A DNA stretch of 64,000 bases, taken from assembly GCA_031272995.1 (NCBI GenBank), contig JAISSY010000054.1:2589-66588 (forward strand), in the 5' to 3' direction. Origin of the DNA: Azoarcus sp. GTDB lineage: Bacteria; Pseudomonadota; Gammaproteobacteria; Burkholderiales; Rhodocyclaceae. A program made the translations under genes and the position numbers. The first letter of the stretch is position 1, and each line of letters begins with the position of its first letter. Below the pieces are notes generated by a model. The model saw nothing but the letters and a program-made list of their open reading frames with translations, searched no databases and was not told the DNA's origin. This document shows positions 12,785 to 23,579 of the stretch, in pieces.

Positions 12785-13894
12785 TCAGGCCGCCGACGCC
12801 TCGCGCCCGGCGGCGAGCAGCCCGAAACGCTTCAACTGCGCGCGCAGAACGTTGCGCGAGATGCCCAACGACTTCGCCGCCCGCACCTGATTTTCACGCG
12901 CATGAGCGAAAGCGGCTCGCACCAGTTCTTCTTCCACCGTCTCGTAGAGACGCTCGCGCCCTTCGTCGAGCAGGCGACGAAAAACGCCCGCCAGTCGGGA
13001 GGCCGCGTCGCCCGCCTCGTCGTCGCCTCCACCCTGCGGCGCGAAAGCGCCCAGACCGTGCGGCAAGCGTAAATCGCCCACGTCGACGCGACCGTCCTGC
13101 GCCACGATCAGGGCGCGATGGATGACGTTTTCGAGTTCGCGGATGTTGCCTGGCCATTCGTACTCGAACAGCGCCGCCTGCGCCGCCGGGGTCAGCGTCG
13201 CTCCCCGCAGCCCCAGCTTGCCGCCATAGCGTTCGACGAACAGCCGCACCAGCGGCAGGATGTCGCCCGGTCGCTGTCGCAACGGCGGCAAGGTTACGGA
13301 AGCGATGTTGAGGCGGAAATAAAGATCCATGCGGAAATGTCCGGCGCGCACCGCATGAATCAAATCCACGTTGGTCGCCGCCACCATCCGCACGTCGATG
13401 GGCGTCGCCTTGCGCGCGCCGAGCCGCACCACACAACGTTCCTGTAACACGCGCAACAGTTTCACCTGCATGGAAAGCGGCAAATCGCCGATTTCGTCGA
13501 GAAATAGCGTGCCGCCATGCGCCGCCTCGAACCACCCGGCGCGCGCCTGTCCCGCGCCGGTGAATGCGCCGGCTTCGTGGCCGAACAACTCCGCCTCCAC
13601 CAGATTCTCGTTGAAAGCGCCGCAATTGACCGCCACGAACGGCCCGCTGCGCCCGCTTTTCTGGTGAATATGGCGCGCGATCAGTTCCTTGCCGGTTCCG
13701 GTTTCGCCCACCACCAACACCGAAGCGTCGCTCGCCGCCAGCCGTTCGACCTCCTCCAGCAGGCCCACCGAACGCGAGTCGCGGAACACCAACACGCGCG
13801 CCCGAATCGAGAGCGAATGCTCCTGCGGCGAGGCAAAAGTCAAAACCGTATTTTCTGGATTTCCGTGCAGTTGCCGGACGACACTCGATGCCAT
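12785..13894 (-). CDS. Sigma-54-dependent enhancer-binding protein, SfnR-like, lacking an N-terminal regulatory domain
   Basis: GETGTGKE, intact GAFTGA loop, LFLDEIG, WPGNIRELEN, C-terminal Fis-type HTH (NQVRAAKSLGISRNVLR). The short N-terminus LTF...SIRARVLVF resembles Pseudomonas SfnR as I recall it. Confidence 0.85.
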   Translation of the reverse strand: MASSVVRQLHGNPENTVLTFASPQEHSLSIRARVLVFRDSRSVGLLEEVERLAASDASVLVVGETGTGKELIARHIHQKSGRSGPFVAVNCGAFNENLVEAELFGHEAGAFTGAGQARAGWFEAAHGGTLFLDEIGDLPLSMQVKLLRVLQERCVVRLGARKATPIDVRMVAATNVDLIHAVRAGHFRMDLYFRLNIASVTLPPLRQRPGDILPLVRLFVERYGGKLGLRGATLTPAAQAALFEYEWPGNIRELENVIHRALIVAQDGRVDVGDLRLPHGLGAFAPQGGGDDEAGDAASRLAGVFRRLLDEGRERLYETVEEELVRAAFAHARENQVRAAKSLGISRNVLRAQLKRFGLLAAGREASAA

Positions 13895-14026: not shown

Positions 14027-14425
14027 TTATTCAAGCAGGCGCACCGATTGCCCCTGCTTTTGCAGAATGGCGATGGCCTGTTTATCGAATGAGGCGAAGG
14101 TTTTGCCGCCCAGCATCGTGCCTTCGTAGGCCATAACGCCGTCAGCGAAATCGCCGCCCGCCTCCAGCACGGCAAGTCCGGCTTCCACGGCGGGACGATT
14201 CATCGTCACGCTGCGCACGGCCAACAAATCCCGAATGGTCGCCGCGACCTCCTCTTTCGACAATTTCGCGCCCTGACGGAGCACCCACACCAGTTCGCAC
14301 AGACAGGGCAGGGAAACAGCTATCAACGACGCCTCCCGAAGCAGTCTGGACGCCACCACGGCCTGCGCGGGATCGTCCTGCAACACCGCGCGCGCCAGCA
14401 CATTGGTATCGGCGGTGATCTTCAC
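14027..14425 (-). CDS. vapC: PIN-domain toxin (VapC family)
   Basis: GTG start at 14425 overlaps the antitoxin TGA. Acidic residues in ADTNV, CELVW, GDFADG and SFDK. Confidence 0.9.
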   Translation of the reverse strand: MKITADTNVLARAVLQDDPAQAVVASRLLREASLIAVSLPCLCELVWVLRQGAKLSKEEVAATIRDLLAVRSVTMNRPAVEAGLAVLEAGGDFADGVMAYEGTMLGGKTFASFDKQAIAILQKQGQSVRLLE

Positions 14426-14682
14426 GCTTCGTCCTTGCCGCCCGCCCACCCTGCGGCGGCGATTCGGTTCATTTCCTCGATCGTCAGCGGCTTTTTCAGC
14501 TTGCCCGCGTGCCGCCCGATGAAGTTCTCGATGCTGCCCGCCGGGCGCTCAGCGCGCAGGCGCAACTCGCCACCCGGCAGTTTGTCGAGTTCGATTCGCT
14601 CTCCCGGCTTGATGCCGAGGTATTGCAGCAAATCCCGTTTGAGCGTGACTTGGCCTTTCATGCTTACAGCGAGCGCGGTCAT
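14422..14682 (-). CDS. vapB: AbrB/MazE/SpoVT-family antitoxin (VapB)
   Basis: MTALAVSMKGQVTLKRDLLQYLGIKPGERIEL is the AbrB-fold signature; SD GGAG upstream. Confidence 0.88.
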   Translation of the reverse strand: MTALAVSMKGQVTLKRDLLQYLGIKPGERIELDKLPGGELRLRAERPAGSIENFIGRHAGKLKKPLTIEEMNRIAAAGWAGGKDEA

Positions 14683-14716
14683 CGCGGTCTCCAGCGGTTG
14701 GTTCCAAAACACCACC

Positions 14717-14744
14717 ATAGTAATGAAATTTTTACTTACCGCAA
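14717..14744 (-). promoter_or_regulatory. Putative sigma-70 promoter of vapBC with an imperfect palindromic operator
   Basis: TTGCGG-N16-TACTAT on the minus strand; imperfect dyad GTAATGAAAT/TTTTACTTAC across the spacer. Confidence 0.55.
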
Positions 14745-14756
14745 GCGCGAATTTCA

Positions 14757-14794
14757 CTGCTTCATTTGCAGCAATCGAGTTGCCAGCGCAGCAG
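14757..14794 (+). promoter_or_regulatory. Candidate tandem upstream activator sites (two YTGC-N7-GCAG dyads, 23 bp apart)
   Basis: CTGCTTCATTTGCAG (14757-14771) and TTGCCAGCGCAGCAG (14780-14794), 65-100 bp upstream of the -24 element. Confidence 0.45.
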
Positions 14795-14838
14795 CCGCTT
14801 GGGCGTCGCCGCCTTTTCGCACGAAACAAATTCCATTA

Positions 14839-14856: not shown

Positions 14857-14872
14857 TGGCACATCTCCTGCT
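14857..14872 (+). promoter_or_regulatory. Sigma-54 (-24/-12) promoter
   Basis: TGGCAC-ATCTC-CTGCT, exact GG-N10-GC spacing, about 70 bp upstream of the receptor start. Confidence 0.85.
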
Positions 14873-14943: not shown

Positions 14944-17751
14944 ATGTTCCTCTCGCCCCCATCATCCCTGCGGATGAAGCCGTTGCGAGCCGCCATATTG
15001 GGAAGTCTGTTGCTGGTCGGCGCGCCGGTGGCTGCGCAAGACGGCGAGGTCAGCGTCGAAAGCCTGCAAAAGCAGGTCGAGGACTTGCGGAAAGCGTTGG
15101 AAGAAAGCCAGCGCGAGTTGGCAGCCGAACGGGCGCGCTCGTCCGCAGTTGCGCCCGCCGAGACGCCTCCCGCCGAAGTCCCCGCCGACCCGGCAGCCGC
15201 CGCACAGGAATCCGAATCCGCGCCCACGCCTGAGCCGGTCGCGGAGGATTCCACCGGCGAGCAGAGCCTTGAAGCAGTCGTCATCAAGCGGCGCAAGGTG
15301 CAGCCAATCGAAGAATTGAAGGAGACGCCGAAATCGGTTTCCGTCGTCACCGGAGCAGAACTGGAAAACCTCGGCGCCACCGACGTCACGCAGGTTCTGA
15401 ACCGGATCGGCAACGTCAACTTCAACTACGGCAACCCGCGCACCGGGTCGCTCACCCTGCGCGGCATCACCACCGGCTCCAACGACCAGATCGGCCCTAC
15501 GGTCGGAACCGAAATCGACGGCGTCCCCATCGCCTATACGCCGCTCTCCAACGGCTTTCCGTTCGTCGACATCGACTCGGTCGGGGTTGCGCGCGGCCCG
15601 GTCGGCACGCGTGGCGGCAGGATTTCCAACATTGGCCGGATCACGTTCAAATCCAAAAAGCCTACCTTCACGCCCGAAGCCAATATTTCCGTCACCCTCG
15701 GCGAATGGGACACCCTGAAAACGTCGGCGGTGGTGGGCGGGCCGGTGGTCGACGGACTGCTGGCGTGGCGCGGCACCATCCTGCGCGAACAGGGCGACGG
15801 CCCGTGGGAAACCCAATTCAAGGATCTCGAAGGTCGCGGCAGCTACAAGAACGTCGACCGCACTTTCGGACGCGTCCAGTTGTTGTTTACGCCAAGCGAA
15901 AATTTCAAGGCGAACCTGAGCGTCGAACATCAACCCAAGGGCAGCGAATGGGTGAACGGTCTCAGCCAGCGCCATCCCGAACCGACGACCTACCGCGACG
16001 GCACGCCACGCTCGGCGGCCTCCATCGACACCGCCTACAAGAAATATCAGCGCGACTGGTTCAACAAGGATCCGGCGCTGTGGGACACGACGCGCGACTA
16101 CTACCGCTATCCGGTCTACGTCGACAACAACGGCGCGATCATCACCAGTTCGAAGGGCTGGACGCTGAACGCCGAATTGAAAGTGCCCGGCCACACCATC
16201 GAATCCATCACCAGTTGGCGCTCGCACTGGTTCTCGGCGGCCAACGACGAAGGCACCCCCTACGACGTCACCAAGAGCGGCGGCTACATCACCAGCTACT
16301 CGCAACGCAGTCAGGAATTGCGCCTGACTTCGGACAAGGACGACAAGTTCGAATACGTCGCGGGACTTTTCTTCCTTTCCTCCGACAACGATTCCTTGGG
16401 TGGCCGCACACGTTGGGGCAACGACGCCGGCGCTTATCAGGCCAACAACGCGCAATACGCGGCGCTGAACGCCGACGGCGCCGGTCAGGCCATGCTGCGG
16501 GATTCCCTCAACGGCGCTTACAAATATCCGAGGGCATACGTTAAGAACAAGGAATTTTCGATTTTCGGCGAAACCGACTGGCACATCACCGCGCCGCTGA
16601 CGCTGACCACCGGCGCGCGCGTCTCGTGGGAGAAGCGCCGCACCGATCAGGAAAACGTGCTCGACGACCCCGGCGTCGGCGCCAACTTCTCCAAAGCCTT
16701 CGGCATCACCACCAACACTTCCACCGTGCTCGACACGACGGCGGCGGACGCGTTGGCGCAACAGTATTTCGGCTCGACCTACGCCAGTCTCTCGGCGGCG
16801 CAACAGTCGCAACTGCAACAGGCGGCGGCGGTTCGCAACGGCGCGTTGCAGCAGGGCACGCTATACGCGCGCAAGTCGGCGAAGCCGTGGGAAGGCGAGG
16901 TCTATGCCGGCAACATCGCGCTCACCGACAAGATCAACGAAAACCTGACCGTCTATGGCACGGTGCAATACGGCGAAAAAGGCGGCATCGCCCAGTTGAA
17001 CAGCGCCGGAGAGTCCGCGCCGGTCGACAAGGAACGCACCACCGGACTTGAAATCGGCTTCAGGTCGTCGTTGTTCAACGACGCCCTCACCTTGAACGCC
17101 GACGTGTTCATCAACGAGGTCAAGGATTTCCAGACCACGGTGGCCGAACTCGACCCGGCGGCGACCGCCGCCTATCAGGCCGCCAATCCTGGGCTTCCGG
17201 CCAGCGAAACCCAGCAATACCAGAGTCTGGTCGGCAACCTTCCCAAGGTGCGCATCAAGGGGGTGGAAATCGACGCCCTCTACAAGGGCGTCAAGAATCT
17301 GACCCTGCGGCTGGCGGCTTCCTACAACGACGCGCGTTACGCCGACGACACATATCTCGCGCAACCGAGCGACATCCAGTGGGGAGCGGGAACCGGGCGC
17401 AGCCAGTATTACAACGTCAAGGGCGAAACCCTGAGCAACGCGCCGAAATTCACCGCCATTCTGGGGGCAGATTACAGACGGCCCATCCTGGGCAACTGGG
17501 ACTTCCACGCCGCCGCCAACTACAAGTGGACGAGCGCCTATTACACCTCGAACGGCAGGCCCAAATACAACCGGCAGGACGCCTACGGGCTGCTCGACGT
17601 GGCCTTCGGCATAGGCCGTCGGGACGGCGCTTTCGACGCCAACATCATCATCCGCAACGCTCTCGACGAGGACTATCACGTCGAAGGCTGGAGCAGCTAC
17701 ACGCCGGCGACCCCGCGCTGGGCCGGCATCGTTTTCTCAAGCCACTTCTAA
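14944..17751 (+). CDS. TonB-dependent outer-membrane receptor (~935 aa) with an N-terminal coiled-coil extension
   Basis: SD GGAGA 5 nt before ATG 14944; signal peptide; TonB-box-like EAVVIK; plug (IDGVP...ARGPVGT); beta-barrel periodicity; C-terminal Phe (SSHF). Confidence 0.92.
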   Translation: MFLSPPSSLRMKPLRAAILGSLLLVGAPVAAQDGEVSVESLQKQVEDLRKALEESQRELAAERARSSAVAPAETPPAEVPADPAAAAQESESAPTPEPVAEDSTGEQSLEAVVIKRRKVQPIEELKETPKSVSVVTGAELENLGATDVTQVLNRIGNVNFNYGNPRTGSLTLRGITTGSNDQIGPTVGTEIDGVPIAYTPLSNGFPFVDIDSVGVARGPVGTRGGRISNIGRITFKSKKPTFTPEANISVTLGEWDTLKTSAVVGGPVVDGLLAWRGTILREQGDGPWETQFKDLEGRGSYKNVDRTFGRVQLLFTPSENFKANLSVEHQPKGSEWVNGLSQRHPEPTTYRDGTPRSAASIDTAYKKYQRDWFNKDPALWDTTRDYYRYPVYVDNNGAIITSSKGWTLNAELKVPGHTIESITSWRSHWFSAANDEGTPYDVTKSGGYITSYSQRSQELRLTSDKDDKFEYVAGLFFLSSDNDSLGGRTRWGNDAGAYQANNAQYAALNADGAGQAMLRDSLNGAYKYPRAYVKNKEFSIFGETDWHITAPLTLTTGARVSWEKRRTDQENVLDDPGVGANFSKAFGITTNTSTVLDTTAADALAQQYFGSTYASLSAAQQSQLQQAAAVRNGALQQGTLYARKSAKPWEGEVYAGNIALTDKINENLTVYGTVQYGEKGGIAQLNSAGESAPVDKERTTGLEIGFRSSLFNDALTLNADVFINEVKDFQTTVAELDPAATAAYQAANPGLPASETQQYQSLVGNLPKVRIKGVEIDALYKGVKNLTLRLAASYNDARYADDTYLAQPSDIQWGAGTGRSQYYNVKGETLSNAPKFTAILGADYRRPILGNWDFHAAANYKWTSAYYTSNGRPKYNRQDAYGLLDVAFGIGRRDGAFDANIIIRNALDEDYHVEGWSSYTPATPRWAGIVFSSHF

Positions 17752-17775: not shown

Positions 17776-18213
17776 ATGAACGACAAGATCGTCAAACCCC
17801 TCGCCGCCCTCGTGGCCGCCGCCGCGCTGGCGAGCGCCGCGCCCGCCATCGCCCACCATGCCTTCGCCGCCGAATTCGACGCCAACCAACCCGTCGAATT
17901 GCGCGGCATCGTGACCAAGGCGCGCTGGGTCAATCCGCATAGCTGGCTGTACATCGACGTCAAGGACGCCTCCGGCGAAGTCACCAACTGGGGCTTCGAA
18001 TTCGGCGCGCCAAACACCTTGCAGAATCGCGGCCTGCAAAAAGCCGATCTGAAGGTCGGCACCGAAGTCTTCATCAAGGGCTACCGCTCCAAGAACGGCG
18101 GGCCGTTCGGCTATTCCGTCTTCATCACCCTGCCCGACGGTCGCAGCATCCAGACCGGCGGCGCGCAGGACGCGCCCAAGGACGAACCCGCCCAACCGGG
18201 AGCCGCCAGTTGA
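17776..18213 (+). CDS. DUF6152-type secreted protein
   Basis: Signal peptide ending AIA, then HHAFAAEFD...WVNPHSWLYIDV...WGFEFG; family recognised from memory of these motifs. Confidence 0.75.
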   Translation: MNDKIVKPLAALVAAAALASAAPAIAHHAFAAEFDANQPVELRGIVTKARWVNPHSWLYIDVKDASGEVTNWGFEFGAPNTLQNRGLQKADLKVGTEVFIKGYRSKNGGPFGYSVFITLPDGRSIQTGGAQDAPKDEPAQPGAAS

Positions 18214-19010
18214 ACGCCACCGAACCGCGCCGCCGCTTTCTGGGCGCTTTCGCGGCTCTGGCGCTGTCGACCGGCGTCGTCGCCATGACGGTTCCGGTCG
18301 GAGCCGCCGCGGCGGCGGGCAAGATTCCCCGTCTCGACAACGGCAAGCCCGATTTCTCCGGCATCTGGCAAACGACGAGCGCTGCCGAATACGACCTCGA
18401 ACCCCACATCGGTCGCGTCGACGCGCCGCCGGGGCCGGGAGTCGTGATCGACGGCGACGGCTTCATCCCTTATCTGCCCAAGGCGCTCGAACAAAAACAA
18501 AAGAACTTCGCGGCGCGGCAGAGCGCCGACCCCACCGCCAAAGGCTACACGCAGGGCGTGCCGCGCCAGATATACAGCCTTTATCCGTTCCAGATTCTGC
18601 AACGGGCGCGCGACGTCACCATCGTCCCGCAGTTCGGCTATTCGATTCGCACCATCCACACCAACGGCACCAAACACCCGACCGAGGACAACGATTTCTG
18701 GCTCGGCGATTCGCGCGGACATTGGGAAGGCGACACGCTGGTGGTGGACATCACCGATTTCTACGACGAAACCTGGCTCGACCGCGCCGGCAACTTCCAC
18801 TCCTCCGACCTGCACGTGGTCGAACGCTGGAAGTTTCTCGACGCCAACACCATCGAATACCGGGCGACGCTGGAAGACCCGCAGGTGTACGCGCAGCCAT
18901 GGACGCTGAGCGTGATTCTTCACCGTCACCGCGAAAAGAACTTTCAACTGATCGAGGACTACCGCTACACGCTGCCCTACGACCAGTACTACCCGCCCAA
19001 GAAACCCTGA
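18210..19010 (+). CDS. Uncharacterised periplasmic protein (paralog A), putative Tat substrate
   Basis: TTG start overlaps the upstream TGA. RRRFL Tat-like motif; GKPDFSGIW and GDSRGHWEGDTLVV motifs shared with the next gene. Confidence 0.8.
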   Translation: MNATEPRRRFLGAFAALALSTGVVAMTVPVGAAAAAGKIPRLDNGKPDFSGIWQTTSAAEYDLEPHIGRVDAPPGPGVVIDGDGFIPYLPKALEQKQKNFAARQSADPTAKGYTQGVPRQIYSLYPFQILQRARDVTIVPQFGYSIRTIHTNGTKHPTEDNDFWLGDSRGHWEGDTLVVDITDFYDETWLDRAGNFHSSDLHVVERWKFLDANTIEYRATLEDPQVYAQPWTLSVILHRHREKNFQLIEDYRYTLPYDQYYPPKKP

Positions 19011-19037: not shown

Positions 19038-20054
19038 ATGAAACGCATTTTTCCGCTTCCCTCTCTGACGCTGGCGCTATTGACCGCGACCGCCGCCGTC
19101 GCCCAAACGCCGCCGCCCGCCGCGCCCGGACAACCGCAAACGCAAGTCCGTCAGGGCGGCATCGGTTTCGAGACGAGCTTCCCGCAAATCGCCGCCGCGA
19201 AATGGACGGGGCCGCGACTCAAGGACGGACAACCGGACGTTTCCGGCCACTGGTCGAACACCATCGCCAATCACAACAATTTCACCGACCCGCAGGGCGG
19301 CATCATTGGCGACCCGACGCCGCGCGCGGTGGCTTTCCGCGCCGCCAATCATCCGCGCGCGGAGCGCGCCCCCAGCCGGGTGAGCGACCCGGCGGACGGT
19401 CAGCCGCCGTTCCAGCCCTGGGCGGCGGCGAAGGTGAAGGAGTTTCAGGAAAACTTCAACAATCCGGTCAAGCCCGAATACACCGAGCCGAACGCCCGTT
19501 GCGCGCCGGGAGGCATCCCGAAATCCTTCTACTGGCACGGTTACGAAATCCGCCAGTATCCGGGCTATGTGCTCATCATGTTCAACAACGGCTATCGCCT
19601 GATTCATCTCGACGGCAAGCCGCATCTGCCGGAGCGGCTGAAGTTGTGGAACGGCGATTCGCGCGGCCATTGGGAAGGCAACACGCTGGTGGTGAGCGCG
19701 CGCAACGTCAACGGCAAGGCGCTGTTCGGTCGCTCCGGCGAGTTCTTCAGCGAAAACGCCAGGGTCGACGAGCGTTTCATCTTCGCCAACGACGGCAAAC
19801 GCTACAACTATGTTGCGGTCATCACCGACCCGACCGTGTTTACGCGCCCCTTCACCGTCACCATTCCGGCGCGGCGCTACACCGAAGCCGACAAATACAA
19901 CGAGTGGCATTACGAAGCCACGCCCGCCAATTACGACGGCAAAGCGCCGCTGCACGAGCGTTACGAGCGCATCTGCCACGAGAACAACGGCGGCTTCGGC
20001 GCGCCGGCAATCACATCGGCGCCAGCCGCCCCACCTGCGGCGACGAAAAACTGA
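19038..20054 (+). CDS. Uncharacterised periplasmic protein (paralog B)
   Basis: Sec-type signal peptide; GQPDVSGHW, RCAPGGIP, GDSRGHWEGNTLVV, ICHENN. Confidence 0.82.
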   Translation: MKRIFPLPSLTLALLTATAAVAQTPPPAAPGQPQTQVRQGGIGFETSFPQIAAAKWTGPRLKDGQPDVSGHWSNTIANHNNFTDPQGGIIGDPTPRAVAFRAANHPRAERAPSRVSDPADGQPPFQPWAAAKVKEFQENFNNPVKPEYTEPNARCAPGGIPKSFYWHGYEIRQYPGYVLIMFNNGYRLIHLDGKPHLPERLKLWNGDSRGHWEGNTLVVSARNVNGKALFGRSGEFFSENARVDERFIFANDGKRYNYVAVITDPTVFTRPFTVTIPARRYTEADKYNEWHYEATPANYDGKAPLHERYERICHENNGGFGAPAITSAPAAPPAATKN

Positions 20055-20102: not shown

Positions 20103-20597
20103 ATGTCCATCCTGCTTGAATTCGCCCAAGACTTGCAGCATTCGGGGCTTGGCACGGCGCTGGCCGAGTCGCGCTACGCGTTTCCGATCATCGAGGGCAC
20201 GCATCTGATCGGGCTTTCCATCTCGGTCGGATTGCTGTTTCTCATCGACCTGCGCCTGATCGGAGCGTTTCTGAAACAGGTGCCGGCGAACACGCTGCTG
20301 CGGCAGTTGTTGCCCATCGTGCTGTGGGGCTTCGCCGTCATCTTCGTCACCGGATTGCTGCTGTTTACCGCCGAGGCGGACACGATCATCGTCAGCCCGG
20401 TCTTCCCGATCAAGCTCCTGTTGCTGTTGCTGGGCGGCCTGAACGCGCTCTATTTCGAGTTCAAGCTCTCGCGCGAGCTGGAGTTCCAGAACAGCACCGC
20501 CGCCGTACTGCCCGCCAAGGTGCGCTACGCCGGCTACGCCTCGCTCATCCTGTGGGTGCTGGTCATCATCGCCGGGCGCATGTTGGCCTATCTCTAA
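20103..20597 (+). CDS. DUF6644-type 4-TM membrane protein (copy 1)
   Basis: EGTHLIG...DLRLIG, four hydrophobic segments, C-terminal LW...AGR. Confidence 0.75.
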   Translation: MSILLEFAQDLQHSGLGTALAESRYAFPIIEGTHLIGLSISVGLLFLIDLRLIGAFLKQVPANTLLRQLLPIVLWGFAVIFVTGLLLFTAEADTIIVSPVFPIKLLLLLLGGLNALYFEFKLSRELEFQNSTAAVLPAKVRYAGYASLILWVLVIIAGRMLAYL

Positions 20598-20615: not shown

Positions 20616-21089
20616 ATGTCTACACTCGACGTTTTGACCGCGCTGGCCGCCAGCCCTCTCGGACAGGCCATCGGCCAGTCCAACCACCTCGTGGGCGCGA
20701 CGGCGCAGGTGTTTCACATTCTGGGCTTCGTCGCCCTGCTCGCCTCGGTGGTGTTTATAAACCTGCGCCTGCTCGGACGGGTGTTGCCCAACGTGCCCTT
20801 GCAGGAGGTCGTTCGCCTGCCGGTGAAATTCATCTGGTGGGGATTCGGCTTCGCCAGCGTCAGCGGCCTGCTGATGTTCATCGCGGTGCCGACGCTGTAT
20901 TACGCCAACCCGGCGTTCATCCTCAAGCTGGTGCTGTACGTGCTCGCCATCGTCTTCCAGATCGTCCTCTACCAATACACGCTGCGCCAAAAGAATCCCG
21001 AAAAATCGCTGGTTTTGGCGAGCGTGGCGCTGTCGGTGATTCTGTGGTTCGGCGTCGGGCTGGCGGGTCGGGCGATCGGCTATGTCTAG
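20616..21089 (+). CDS. DUF6644-type 4-TM membrane protein (copy 2)
   Basis: QVFHILG...NLRLLG, FILKL, LW...AGR; same motif layout as copy 1. Confidence 0.75.
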   Translation: MSTLDVLTALAASPLGQAIGQSNHLVGATAQVFHILGFVALLASVVFINLRLLGRVLPNVPLQEVVRLPVKFIWWGFGFASVSGLLMFIAVPTLYYANPAFILKLVLYVLAIVFQIVLYQYTLRQKNPEKSLVLASVALSVILWFGVGLAGRAIGYV

Positions 21090-21678
21090 GATTCCCGCTC
21101 CGCGCCTCGCCGCGCCCACCGCGCTCGCGCTTGCGCTGTCCGCCCTCGTCGTGCTGGCGGCGGCTTGCAGCGACGGCCACGCCTCGCGCACGGCCACGCC
21201 GCCCTTCAAGGTGAGCGCCACGATTCAGGAAATCATGGCCAACATCATCGACCCCGCCGCCGACGAGACCTGGGAATCGGTGAGCGAGGAATGGGACAAA
21301 GACGGCCACCGCGAGCACAAACCCGAAACCGACGAGCAATGGCTCGCGGTGCTCAACCACGCCGTCGCCTTGCAGGAGTCCGCCGATTTGCTGACGATTC
21401 CGGGGCGCGCCGTCGCGCCGCCGGGAAAGAATCTGGAGGATTCCGGCGTCGCCGGCATTCTCGACGCCGCCGGCGTGGAAGCGGCGATCAAAATCGACCC
21501 GGAGGCTTACGCAGCCTTCATCGCCGCCTACCACGAAGCCGCGCATGAACTGGTCGTCGCCGCACAGAACCGGGACGTCGAAAGTTTGAAACTCGGCGGC
21601 GCGCGACTGGACGCGGTTTGCGAAGCCTGCCACGCCCGTTTCTGGTATCCCGATGCGCAAAAAGCTCCGACGCGCTGA
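21082..21678 (+). CDS. Lipoprotein c-type cytochrome, class II (four-helix-bundle) like
   Basis: Lipobox LAAAC; single CEACH near the C-terminus (nt 21619-21633); helical, Ala-rich. Confidence 0.78.
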   Translation: MSRIPAPRLAAPTALALALSALVVLAAACSDGHASRTATPPFKVSATIQEIMANIIDPAADETWESVSEEWDKDGHREHKPETDEQWLAVLNHAVALQESADLLTIPGRAVAPPGKNLEDSGVAGILDAAGVEAAIKIDPEAYAAFIAAYHEAAHELVVAAQNRDVESLKLGGARLDAVCEACHARFWYPDAQKAPTR

Positions 21679-22096
21679 GTTCGCGCTCCTCCTGTTGCTG
21701 CTGCTTCCCGCGCTGGTCGTCGCCGGGGCGGCGAAGAACAACGCCGTCCTGCGTCTGATGAAGGCCAAGGTCATTCCCGCCTCCACCGTCGTGTTCGAAG
21801 CGGCAGCCGAAGCGCCGGCGAACGGCGCCGGCTGGCAGGCGGCGCTGCAAGCAGCTGACGCGCTCGCCGCCGCAGCTGAGGAACTGAAGCCGACGCCGCG
21901 CGGTTTCGCGGCGACGCCATGGCAGAACGACGTCGCCGCTTTCGCCGACGCGGCGCGCGCCACACGTCAGGCCGTCGCCCGCCGCGACGCCGCCGCACTG
22001 GAAGCGTCGAACGGCGCGCTCTACCAAAGCTGCGAAACCTGCCACACCGACTACCCGCCGCGTGCGGTTTCCGCGCGCGTTTCCGCCCGACCCTGA
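21653..22096 (+). CDS. Periplasmic c-type cytochrome, class II like
   Basis: Signal peptide; C-terminal CETCH (nt 22031-22045); paralogous layout to the upstream cytochrome. Confidence 0.72.
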   Translation: MRKKLRRAEFALLLLLLLPALVVAGAAKNNAVLRLMKAKVIPASTVVFEAAAEAPANGAGWQAALQAADALAAAAEELKPTPRGFAATPWQNDVAAFADAARATRQAVARRDAAALEASNGALYQSCETCHTDYPPRAVSARVSARP

Positions 22097-22117: not shown

Positions 22118-22789
22118 ATGAGCTACGCACCCGCTTTCACCACTTCCTACGCCGCCCGCCAGCGCGACCCGCGCCGCCATTTGACCGGCATCGTTCTGGC
22201 GGTGATTTTCCACGTCGCGCTCGGCTATGCGCTGTTGAACGGGCTGGCGCGCGAGGTCGTCAAGGCGATCCGCGACCCGTTGTCGGTGCGGCTGATCGAG
22301 GAAATCAGGCCGTCGCCGCCGCCTCCCCCGCCGCCGCCGCCGAAAAAAATCGCCCGCGTGCAGGCCAAGCCGCGCGCCACGCCGCCGCCGGCATGGGTTC
22401 CGCCGCCGGAAGTTCAGGTCACCGCGCCGACGGTGGAGCCGCCAATCACCGTGGTGCAGCAGGCCGCACCCCCCGAACCCGCGCCTGCGGTGGCCGCGCC
22501 TGCGCCCGCTCCGGTCGCCGCCGCCATCGGCGTCACCTGCCCCAACCACCTGAGCATCCGCAGCAGCGTGGATTACCCGCCGCAAGCCTTGCGCCTGAAC
22601 AAAAGCGGAGAGGTGGTGGCGGAATTCGTCGTCGATACGAAGGGAAAGATCGGCAACGTCCGCATCGCCAAATCCAGCGACCCGATTTTCAACAAAGCCG
22701 TCACCGACGCCGTGCGCCGCTTCAACTGCGTCGGGCAAGGCCGTCCGGTGCGCGTCACCGTGCCTTTCCAGTTCGCGCTGGAAAACTGA
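22118..22789 (+). CDS. tonB: Energy transducer TonB
   Basis: N-terminal TM with SxxxH-type His (AVIFHVA), Pro-rich linker, YPPQA C-terminal domain. Confidence 0.9.
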   Translation: MSYAPAFTTSYAARQRDPRRHLTGIVLAVIFHVALGYALLNGLAREVVKAIRDPLSVRLIEEIRPSPPPPPPPPPKKIARVQAKPRATPPPAWVPPPEVQVTAPTVEPPITVVQQAAPPEPAPAVAAPAPAPVAAAIGVTCPNHLSIRSSVDYPPQALRLNKSGEVVAEFVVDTKGKIGNVRIAKSSDPIFNKAVTDAVRRFNCVGQGRPVRVTVPFQFALEN

Positions 22790-22823: not shown

Positions 22824-23579
22824 ATGGCCGACCCTGTCATCGCTACCCATCTCGCCGCCGAAGTCATCGCCAATCCCTACGGGCTGGACGCCCTGTGGGC
22901 GCAAGGCGATTTCGTCGCCAAGGGCACCCTGATCATCCTGCTGCTGCTGTCGGCGGCAAGCTGGTACGTCATCTTCACCAAACTCTACGAACAGGAAAAA
23001 CTGCGCCGTCACGCCCGCGAAGCGCAGCGCAAATTCTGGATCGCCGCCGGCATCCGCGAAGGCGCAGACGCGCTCGATCCGAACGGCGCTTTCCGCTTCA
23101 TCGCCCAATCCGGGCTGAACGCCAAGGAGCGCCACGTCGGCCTGCTCGAACACATCGACCTCAACACCTGGATCGGCCAATCCATCCAGCGCGCGGTCGA
23201 AAACGTGCAGACGCGCTTGCAGGACGGGCTGGCGCTGCTCGCCACCGTCGGCTCCACCGCGCCGTTCATCGGGCTGTTCGGCACCGTCTGGGGCATCTAC
23301 CACGCCCTCACCGCCATCGGCATCGCCGGACAGGCGTCGATCGACAAGGTGGCCGGCCCGGTGGGCGAATCGCTGATCATGACCGCCATCGGTCTGGCAG
23401 TGGCCGTTCCCGCCGTGCTCGGCTACAACTGGCTGGTTCGCCGCAACAAGACCGCCCTCGACGAGGTGCGCGCCTTCGGCGCCGACTTGCACGCGACGCT
23501 GCTGGGCGGCGAAACCGCGCACAGCGCCGCCGCCAGCGTCGGCGTGGCGTCGGCCAAGCTCGCCGTGGCGCGGGGCTGA
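22824..23579 (+). CDS. exbB: ExbB / MotA-TolQ proton channel
   Basis: LATVGSTAPFIGLFGTVWGI and ESLIMTAIGL motifs. Confidence 0.93.
   Translation: MADPVIATHLAAEVIANPYGLDALWAQGDFVAKGTLIILLLLSAASWYVIFTKLYEQEKLRRHAREAQRKFWIAAGIREGADALDPNGAFRFIAQSGLNAKERHVGLLEHIDLNTWIGQSIQRAVENVQTRLQDGLALLATVGSTAPFIGLFGTVWGIYHALTAIGIAGQASIDKVAGPVGESLIMTAIGLAVAVPAVLGYNWLVRRNKTALDEVRAFGADLHATLLGGETAHSAAASVGVASAKLAVARG

Follow-up and report, generated by a model that had tools for sequence, protein, structure and literature searches.

What does a small exported protein that appears to begin with two adjacent histidines do inside an operon that joins a TonB-dependent receptor to membrane proteins and cytochromes? The question is raised by a gene in a 64,000-nucleotide stretch of an Azoarcus sp. 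contig (the window). The earlier note had described here an open reading frame whose product carries AIA followed by HHAFAAEF, with a further histidine in NPHSW, and the reading frame and its translation agree with that description (Table 1). A GGAG sequence lies 7 nt ahead of the ATG start. The precursor opens with a basic, Lys-bearing n-region and a 14-residue Ala/Leu/Val core that leads into P-A-I-A; HHAFAAEFD follows directly, and N-P-H-S-W occupies residues 53-57, with the codon of His55 at 17938-17940.

Judged by its sequence, the protein is a bona fide member of the DUF6152 family. It matches the Pfam profile PF19649 with an E-value of 4.6e-32 and 110.4 bits (cut-off 27) across profile positions 3-94 of 98, and it carries all of the family's motifs: the signal peptide, HH(S/A)F..E(F/Y)D, N-P-H, W72 and E75. 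The family is large, with 6,618 matches among 90%-identity clusters and 11,098 representatives of 50%-identity clusters (E <= 1e-3). No NCBIfam model matched DUF6152, its partner barrels or DUF6644, and literature searches on DUF6152, PF19649 and DUF6644 returned no paper naming them. The observation of the His-His pair is new to the literature.

Table 1. Features of the window that are discussed in the text, in order of position
Feature	Position	Strand	Basis
Sigma-54 activator, divergent, without a sensory domain	12785..13894	-	Sigma54_activat, AAA_lid_14 and HTH_8 domains
Candidate sigma-54-type -24/-12 element, TGGCAC-N5-CTGC, about 70 nt upstream of the receptor gene	14857..14871	+	Pattern match with one mismatch
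TonB-dependent receptor, 24 nt ahead of the DUF6152 gene	14944..17751	+	Plug and TonB_dep_Rec_b-barrel domains
DUF6152 gene: 145-aa precursor, predicted 119-aa mature OB-fold protein	17776..18213	+	ORF, Pfam PF19649, AlphaFold model
Predicted Sec signal peptide, 26 residues, ending P-A-I-A	17776..17853	+	Sequence reading; family-wide -1/-3 pattern
His27-His28 codons (CAC CAT), predicted mature residues 1 and 2	17854..17859	+	In frame; family conservation
Glu33-Phe34-Asp35 codons, carboxylates of HH(S/A)FxxE(F/Y)D	17872..17880	+	Conservation in 128 representatives
Asn53-Pro54-His55 codons, third His, in the loop between strands 1 and 2	17932..17940	+	Conservation; loop from the secondary structure of the model
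Partner barrel A, 266 aa, Tat-like signal	18210..19010	+	ORF; TTG start overlaps the DUF6152 TGA stop (TTGA)
Partner barrel B, 338 aa, paralogue of A, Sec signal	19038..20054	+	ORF; phmmer, common family with A
First DUF6644 four-helix membrane protein	20103-20597	+	Pfam DUF6644, E about 1e-9
Second DUF6644 four-helix membrane protein	20616-21089	+	Pfam DUF6644, E about 1e-9
First cytochrome c'-like gene	21082-21678	+	Pfam Cytochrom_C_2, sub-threshold, E 3.7e-5
Second cytochrome c'-like gene	21653-22096	+	Pfam Cytochrom_C_2, sub-threshold, E 6.9e-4
tonB	22118..22789	+	TonB_C domain
exbB	22824..23579	+	Translation reading only

Conservation was counted across 128 full-length DUF6152 representatives that share at most 50% mutual identity. 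His27 and His28 were each kept in 127 of these and His55 in all 128, alongside Pro54 (128/128), Asn53 (123/128), Asp35 (125/128), Glu33 (109/128), Trp72 (126/128) and Glu75 (119/128); the -1 residue, Ala26 in the window protein, was kept in 123. By these counts, the His-His pair is a hallmark of the family, conserved far beyond chance. The sequence ahead of the pair is equally regular. Of 258 motif-bearing proteins, 249 have Ala and 7 have Gly just before the pair; position -3 is occupied by A, V, L, S or T, the uncharged stretch upstream has a median length of 18 residues, and the pair lies 20-35 residues from the protein start in 207 cases. The -1 and -3 positions and the hydrophobic core thus match the rules for signal peptidase I, so that a cut just before His-His is expected in essentially the whole family. 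The idea that predicted cleavage exposes the pair, as first proposed for the window protein, is supported as far as sequence allows. The mature protein very probably begins with His-His, and the pair is very probably essential to function.

Departures from the usual single-domain architecture point in the same direction. In true fusions of DUF6152 to a barrel domain (P0272, P0278, P0284 and P0292), DUF6152 is without exception the leading domain and its His-His pair follows the signal peptide; in P0278, for example, DUF6152 spans residues 14-135 and the barrel residues 144-366. Long proteins in which a barrel seems to precede DUF6152 were rejected as fusions: all of them keep an internal Met and a complete signal peptide before His-His, so each joins two genes in a single call. 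Similar grounds led us to set aside the seeming fusions with Nramp (P0273), Plug (P0276) and OMP_b-brl_4 (P0289), in which the DUF6152 part retains its own Met and signal peptide, and the junction of an apparent DUF6152-DUF6644 fusion (P0281) looks like frameshifted read-through. In each architecture seen, His-His directly follows the signal peptide. P0124, the only genuine tandem protein, adds a case in which the pair is lost: its first copy starts with L-L-A and then HHS, and its internal copy matches profile positions 32-126 only, with the His-His segment gone and D-P-H retained. The domain order in the fusions, the merging of the reverse-order calls and the loss of the motif from the internal copy of P0124 argue that His-His needs a free N-terminus.

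Structure prediction gives the mature protein the fold of a five-stranded OB barrel. The AlphaFold2 model, built from a 93-sequence alignment, has a pLDDT of 86.5 and a pTM of 0.77, and runs from a helical turn (residues 4-7) through a long, bent strand 1, the N-P-H loop, strands 2-3 and a helix to strands 4-5; over the first ten residues, the mean pLDDT falls to 66. A Foldseek search, which the earlier note had suggested, was run together with VIA-align and found generic OB folds only. The best structural matches were SSB/PriB proteins (VIA Z 9.3-8), followed by anticodon domains of tRNA synthetases, and neither program listed a known periplasmic metal binder. Searching the PDB sequences with a DUF6152 profile gave nothing below an E-value of 0.65, and the ESM Atlas returned DUF6152 clusters only. 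We rejected the reading of DUF6152 as a cytoplasmic, SSB-like nucleic-acid binder: the fold alone is shared, identity to the structural matches is 8-20%, there is no PDB sequence match and an export signal is present. Mutual-information covariation across 342 DUF6152 sequences (Neff about 252) couples the N-terminal segment best with the 51-58 loop and with residues 72-78, a weak and underpowered signal that falls in the top 1.5-3.5% of pairs. The C-terminal Q-T-G-G-A-Q-D-A-P stretch (18151-18180, residues 126-135), which forms a low-confidence tail in the model, is near-invariant in the sulfur-free orthologues described below, a constancy that the wider family does not share.

Because a free N-terminal His is an established metal chelate elsewhere, namely in CopC, LPMOs, DUF4198, DUF6702 and anglerases (PMC12537917), a metal site is the most economical reading of an exposed His-His pair. 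We consider it somewhat more probable than its negation that the tip of DUF6152 is a site for a transition metal bound through nitrogen and oxygen ligands, with His55 and Glu/Asp completing it. Cu(II)-binding peptides, GHK among them, display an Xaa-His arrangement, which the predicted N-terminal His-His unites with the chelate formed by a first-position His. A 2-His-1-carboxylate Fe(II) site is also conceivable.

We surveyed 80 DUF6152 loci from named genomes, covering Proteobacteria and many Acidobacteriota, and searched their ORFs. A gene of the partner-barrel family was present in 76 of the 80 loci by phmmer, mostly adjoining DUF6152 and in either order. The overlap of the DUF6152 stop with the start of partner A (TTGA, 18210-18213) suggests translational coupling of the two genes. 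Partner A had no Pfam or NCBIfam match and only unnamed clusters in the ESM Atlas. Its model (pLDDT 84.9) is a calycin-type barrel, to which FABPs, retinol-binding proteins and nitrobindin are similar at modest Z scores of 8.4-6.8; structural matches that include a haemophore span Z 8.4-5.8. Its N-terminus carries a P-R-R-R-F-L-G Tat-like motif (18210-18290), and the signals of partner B and of most homologues are of the Sec type.

Beyond the barrels, the window operon continues with two DUF6644 genes, two cytochrome c'-like genes and tonB-exbB-exbD, of which tonB and exbB supply its motor. A TonB-dependent receptor flanks DUF6152 in most proteobacterial orthologue loci, as it does in the window. 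The variable companions across the 80 loci were TonB-type outer-membrane barrels (at least 28), PQQ dehydrogenases (20) and multihaem cytochromes (7), together with assorted hydrolases and oxidoreductases. Periplasmic PQQ-dependent dehydrogenases are frequent beside DUF6152/barrel pairs in Acidobacteriota, as at L037:10390-11985 on the reverse strand. MetE-like (Meth_synt_2) genes occur in 8 of the 80 loci. In the window itself, the sigma-54 activator and the putative promoter of the operon are separated by two small overlapping ORFs on the reverse strand (14027-14829), which by eye resemble a toxin of the PIN type and an antitoxin of the AbrB/SpoVT type.

DUF6644 was found in 23 of the 80 loci, cytochrome c' in 24 and cytochrome b561 in 3. 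Sub-threshold matches recurred when DUF6644 proteins were compared with other profiles: 9 of 34 matched DUF2214 (best E 3e-5), 6 of 34 CopD (best 2.3e-4) and 5 of 34 SirB, three families that we take to form one clan. A His in the first transmembrane helix of DUF6644 is invariant. From these weak matches, DUF6644 proteins may be distant members of the CopD superfamily. Three loci of the Cellvibrionaceae type offer a second clue to their role. In these (L014:12349-13730, L018:12272-13605 and L022:12796-14206), genes for a cytochrome b561 (Ni_hydr_CYTB, E 5e-28) and a full cytochrome c' (E 3e-30) come after those for the barrels. That b561 and cytochrome c' stand where other loci have two DUF6644 genes and cytochrome c' suggests that DUF6644 is an electron-transfer membrane protein.

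The composition of the window protein and its relatives links this operon to sulfur. Within the orthologue group, defined by identity above about 60%, 114 of 116 mature DUF6152 proteins have no Cys or Met; among distant representatives this holds for 10 of 110, and the mean there is 2.1 sulfur residues. The sulfur-free form occurs in all 16 proteobacterial orthologue loci with a usable mature sequence, and likewise in the acidobacterial loci L030, L033 and L078. Regulators of the CysB family (341-431 bits) are encoded in the orthologous loci L024, L026 and L027, and sigma-54 activators without a sensory domain adjoin the orthologues in L019 and L023. In the window, consensus matches for sigma-54 are no more frequent than expected by chance, so the case for the putative -24/-12 element depends on where it lies and on the divergent activator. 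A family 2A (SrpI-type) encapsulin is present in L017, L022, L029 and L078, whose hosts include the cultured acidobacterium Granulicella rosea DSM 18704, and a long cysteine desulfurase in L017, L029 and L078. In L029 (7071-10616), the DUF6152, barrel and DUF6644 genes have as immediate neighbours a rhodanese, the encapsulin (NCBIfam, 536 bits) and a cysteine desulfurase of 651 aa. Rhodanese exceeds the Pfam cut-off in L022 and L029, rhodanese-like genes appear below threshold (E 8e-4) in eight loci, and L020 and L028 carry a sulfatase-family gene. The NCBI-derived protein P0271, 60% identical to the window protein, is a merged call of a rhodanese-like ORF (sub-threshold, E 7e-4) and a DUF6152 with its own signal peptide; it represents another genome with a rhodanese-like gene directly upstream of DUF6152. 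The window operon looks to be switched on by sulfur starvation, and the recurrence of sulfur-regulon neighbours in independent genomes makes this reading well supported.

These observations can be combined in one model. Our best explanation, to which we would give about an even chance, is that DUF6152 is a Sec-exported OB protein with a His-His N-terminus that serves as the metal-holding small subunit of a barrel module, present in the window in a sulfur-starvation version. Most likely, signal peptidase I would cut after P-A-I-A and so release a 119-residue OB-fold barrel with His-His at its free N-terminus. The amino group and imidazole of His1, His2, the His of N-P-H and the conserved Glu/Asp would then, most likely, hold a transition metal through N and O ligands, with Cu, Ni or Fe as candidates; because the mature protein has neither Cys nor Met, the site would have no sulfur ligands. 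DUF6152 would not be a free-standing metal carrier but would join two FABP-like barrels, as the small subunit, in a conserved periplasmic module. The TonB-dependent receptor would feed this module, and two putative CopD-superfamily membrane proteins and two cytochrome c'-like proteins would wire it to electrons. The pairing of ligand-binding barrels with electron carriers suggests, with clearly less than even confidence, that the module carries out redox or catalytic chemistry and that its substrate is imported, bears sulfur and is probably hydrophobic. DUF6152 proteins fused to a Metal_resist domain, described below, add weight to the model; the generic character of the OB-fold matches, the weak covariation and the lack of metal-homeostasis genes and metal regulators across the 80 loci weigh against it. 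Since the acidobacterial majority of DUF6152 proteins lacks the electron-carrier and sulfur context, the proposed role may hold only for the subgroup to which the window belongs.

Three other readings were weighed. The first, which we regard as unlikely, gives DUF6152 no metal of its own: the His-His tip would bind or act on a ligand held by the barrel, as an acid-base pair, as a binder of sulfate or sulfonate head groups, or as the axial ligand of a nitrobindin-like barrel's heme or tetrapyrrole. The likeness of the partner model to FABPs, nitrobindin and a haemophore is what such a reading would predict, and it gains from the physical fusion of DUF6152 and barrel in some proteins, from the sulfatase-like genes of two loci, and from the HbpS-like, globin, hemerythrin and cytochrome c' genes that recur nearby. 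The similarities of the barrel fold are, however, modest and generic, and side chains acting alone leave unexplained why His-His stands at the first position in every architecture and why the internal tandem copy has lost it.

A second reading, metal trafficking, strikes us as rather improbable. Here the receptor would import a metal or metallophore, and DUF6152 would be a metallochaperone that hands the ion to DUF6644, in the manner of CopC-CopD or YcnI-YcnJ. An N-terminal His as in CopC (PMC12537917), the adjoining TonB-dependent receptor and the weak, recurrent matches of DUF6644 to CopD, DUF2214 and SirB all suit this proposal, as do two metagenomic DUF6152 proteins, P0159 and P0274, that carry a C-terminal ZraP/CpxP-like Metal_resist domain (PF13801) above the Pfam cut-off; the 90%-identity cluster of P0274 has eight member sequences. 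Against it, DUF6644 is confined to a minority of loci and b561 stands in its place in three loci, a pattern more in keeping with electron transfer than with the import of ions; FABP-like barrels, and not permeases, are the constant partners; the neighbouring regulators are CysB-type or sigma-54 activators and not Fur, Zur, NikR or CueR; the entire orthologue group is sulfur-spared; and the apparent fusions with Nramp, Plug and DUF6644 are merged gene calls. The 80 loci showed neither metal-homeostasis genes nor metal regulators. The earlier note had proposed either a metal-binding chaperone or a catalytic subunit, with the metal possibly the substrate itself. The chaperone and substrate half of that proposal is weakened by the missing metal-homeostasis genes and regulators, by the constancy of the FABP-like partners and by variable partners that are electron carriers and catabolic enzymes. 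A metal role had also been offered as an alternative to, or a complement of, a sulfur model. The evidence favours the second option: given the sulfur-spared orthologues and their CysB, sigma-54, encapsulin, desulfurase and rhodanese neighbours, a metal on DUF6152 would complement the sulfur model as a cofactor and not compete with it.

A structural reading, in which the HH(S/A)FxxE(F/Y)D peptide tethers DUF6152 into its partner barrel and the histidines are kept for packing, accounts for the conservation of the entire nine-residue motif beyond the histidines and for the tight gene pairing and start/stop overlap with partner A, but is very unlikely: two adjacent histidines that stay near-invariant across thousands of clusters, together with carboxylates and a distant His, are what a ligand sphere typically shows, and packing residues usually tolerate conservative replacement.

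The reading of DUF6152 as a metal-holding subunit can be extended into a bolder proposal, which we put forward as a speculation with a small chance of being correct as a whole. DUF6152 and its partners may form a new periplasmic metalloenzyme, with a His-His metal centre on an OB fold and two FABP-like barrels, that draws electrons from a dedicated chain of cytochrome c' and a CopD-like or b561 membrane protein and frees sulfur, by oxidation or reduction, from hydrophobic compounds imported via the TonB-dependent receptor. The enzyme would be induced by sulfur starvation, and thousands of paralogues in soil Acidobacteriota would perform related chemistry on other substrates.

With about 11,000 clusters at 50% identity, DUF6152 is among the larger protein families without any study, and it has three near-invariant histidines, two of them at the predicted processed N-terminus. 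If these histidines hold a metal, the family would bring a new fold and a new set of partners to the N-terminal-histidine principle known from LPMOs and CopC. To this the window contributes the argument from domain order and the tandem copy, the exchange of b561 for DUF6644 and a clear sulfur-starvation subgroup. The sulfur-spared orthologue group, its sulfur-type regulation and its electron carriers make sulfate limitation a concrete test condition, and cultured hosts of DUF6152 orthologues are at hand in Massilia sp. CF038, Duganella fentianensis, Methylomonas methanica, Derxia lacustris and Granulicella rosea. One possible outcome could be a new route by which Gram-negative bacteria acquire sulfur.

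Several known systems can be compared with DUF6152. Histidine-brace proteins (LPMOs, CopC and the CuB site of PmoB) share with it a His straight after the signal peptide, a position that is predicted in the case of DUF6152 and that would let the free amino group and the imidazole chelate; like CopC, DUF6152 also has carboxylates and a second, distant invariant His on hand. These proteins are Ig-like or cupredoxin-like sandwiches, whereas DUF6152 models as an OB fold and has two consecutive N-terminal histidines. A Pfam scan of the mature protein at E-values up to 10 found only DUF6152 and a weak match to the OB family tRNA_anti-codon, with no CopC, LPMO, DUF4198 or DUF6702. CusF is a periplasmic OB-fold chaperone for Cu(I)/Ag(I) whose site is made of a His, two Met and a Trp and is not N-terminal. 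DUF6152 resembles CusF, a metal binder, in being a small periplasmic OB-fold protein, but has no Met or Cys in its mature form and thus no Met/His/Trp site for Cu(I); CusF was also absent from the top structural matches of the DUF6152 model. Membership of DUF6152 among the LPMOs, CopC, CusF, DUF4198, DUF6702 or anglerases was rejected, as the fold and profile tests fail and Met ligands are lacking. At the level of gene organization, the window recalls CopC-CopD and YcnI-YcnJ, in that a periplasmic N-terminal-His protein stands beside four-helix membrane proteins with weak CopD-superfamily matches; it differs from them in that the DUF6152-DUF6644 pairing is facultative (23/80 loci) and cytochrome b561 can replace DUF6644.

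A parallel in principle is provided by the signal-strapping families (the DUF4198 Ni protein, DUF6702, Ang-1 and Ang-2), in which an N-terminal His binds Ni, Co or Cu irrespective of fold (Nat Commun 2025, PMC12537917). Metal binding in these families was predicted from the N-terminal His alone, and some of them adjoin TonB-dependent receptors (PMC12537917). The mature forms of these exported bacterial proteins, whose folds are unrelated, begin with His, as is predicted for DUF6152, a family of which that study makes no mention (PMC12537917). Within the signal-strapping families, only 79% and 65% of members retain the N-terminal His (PMC12537917), in contrast to more than 99% for the His-His pair of DUF6152. 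What further sets DUF6152 apart from them is its obligate barrel partners.
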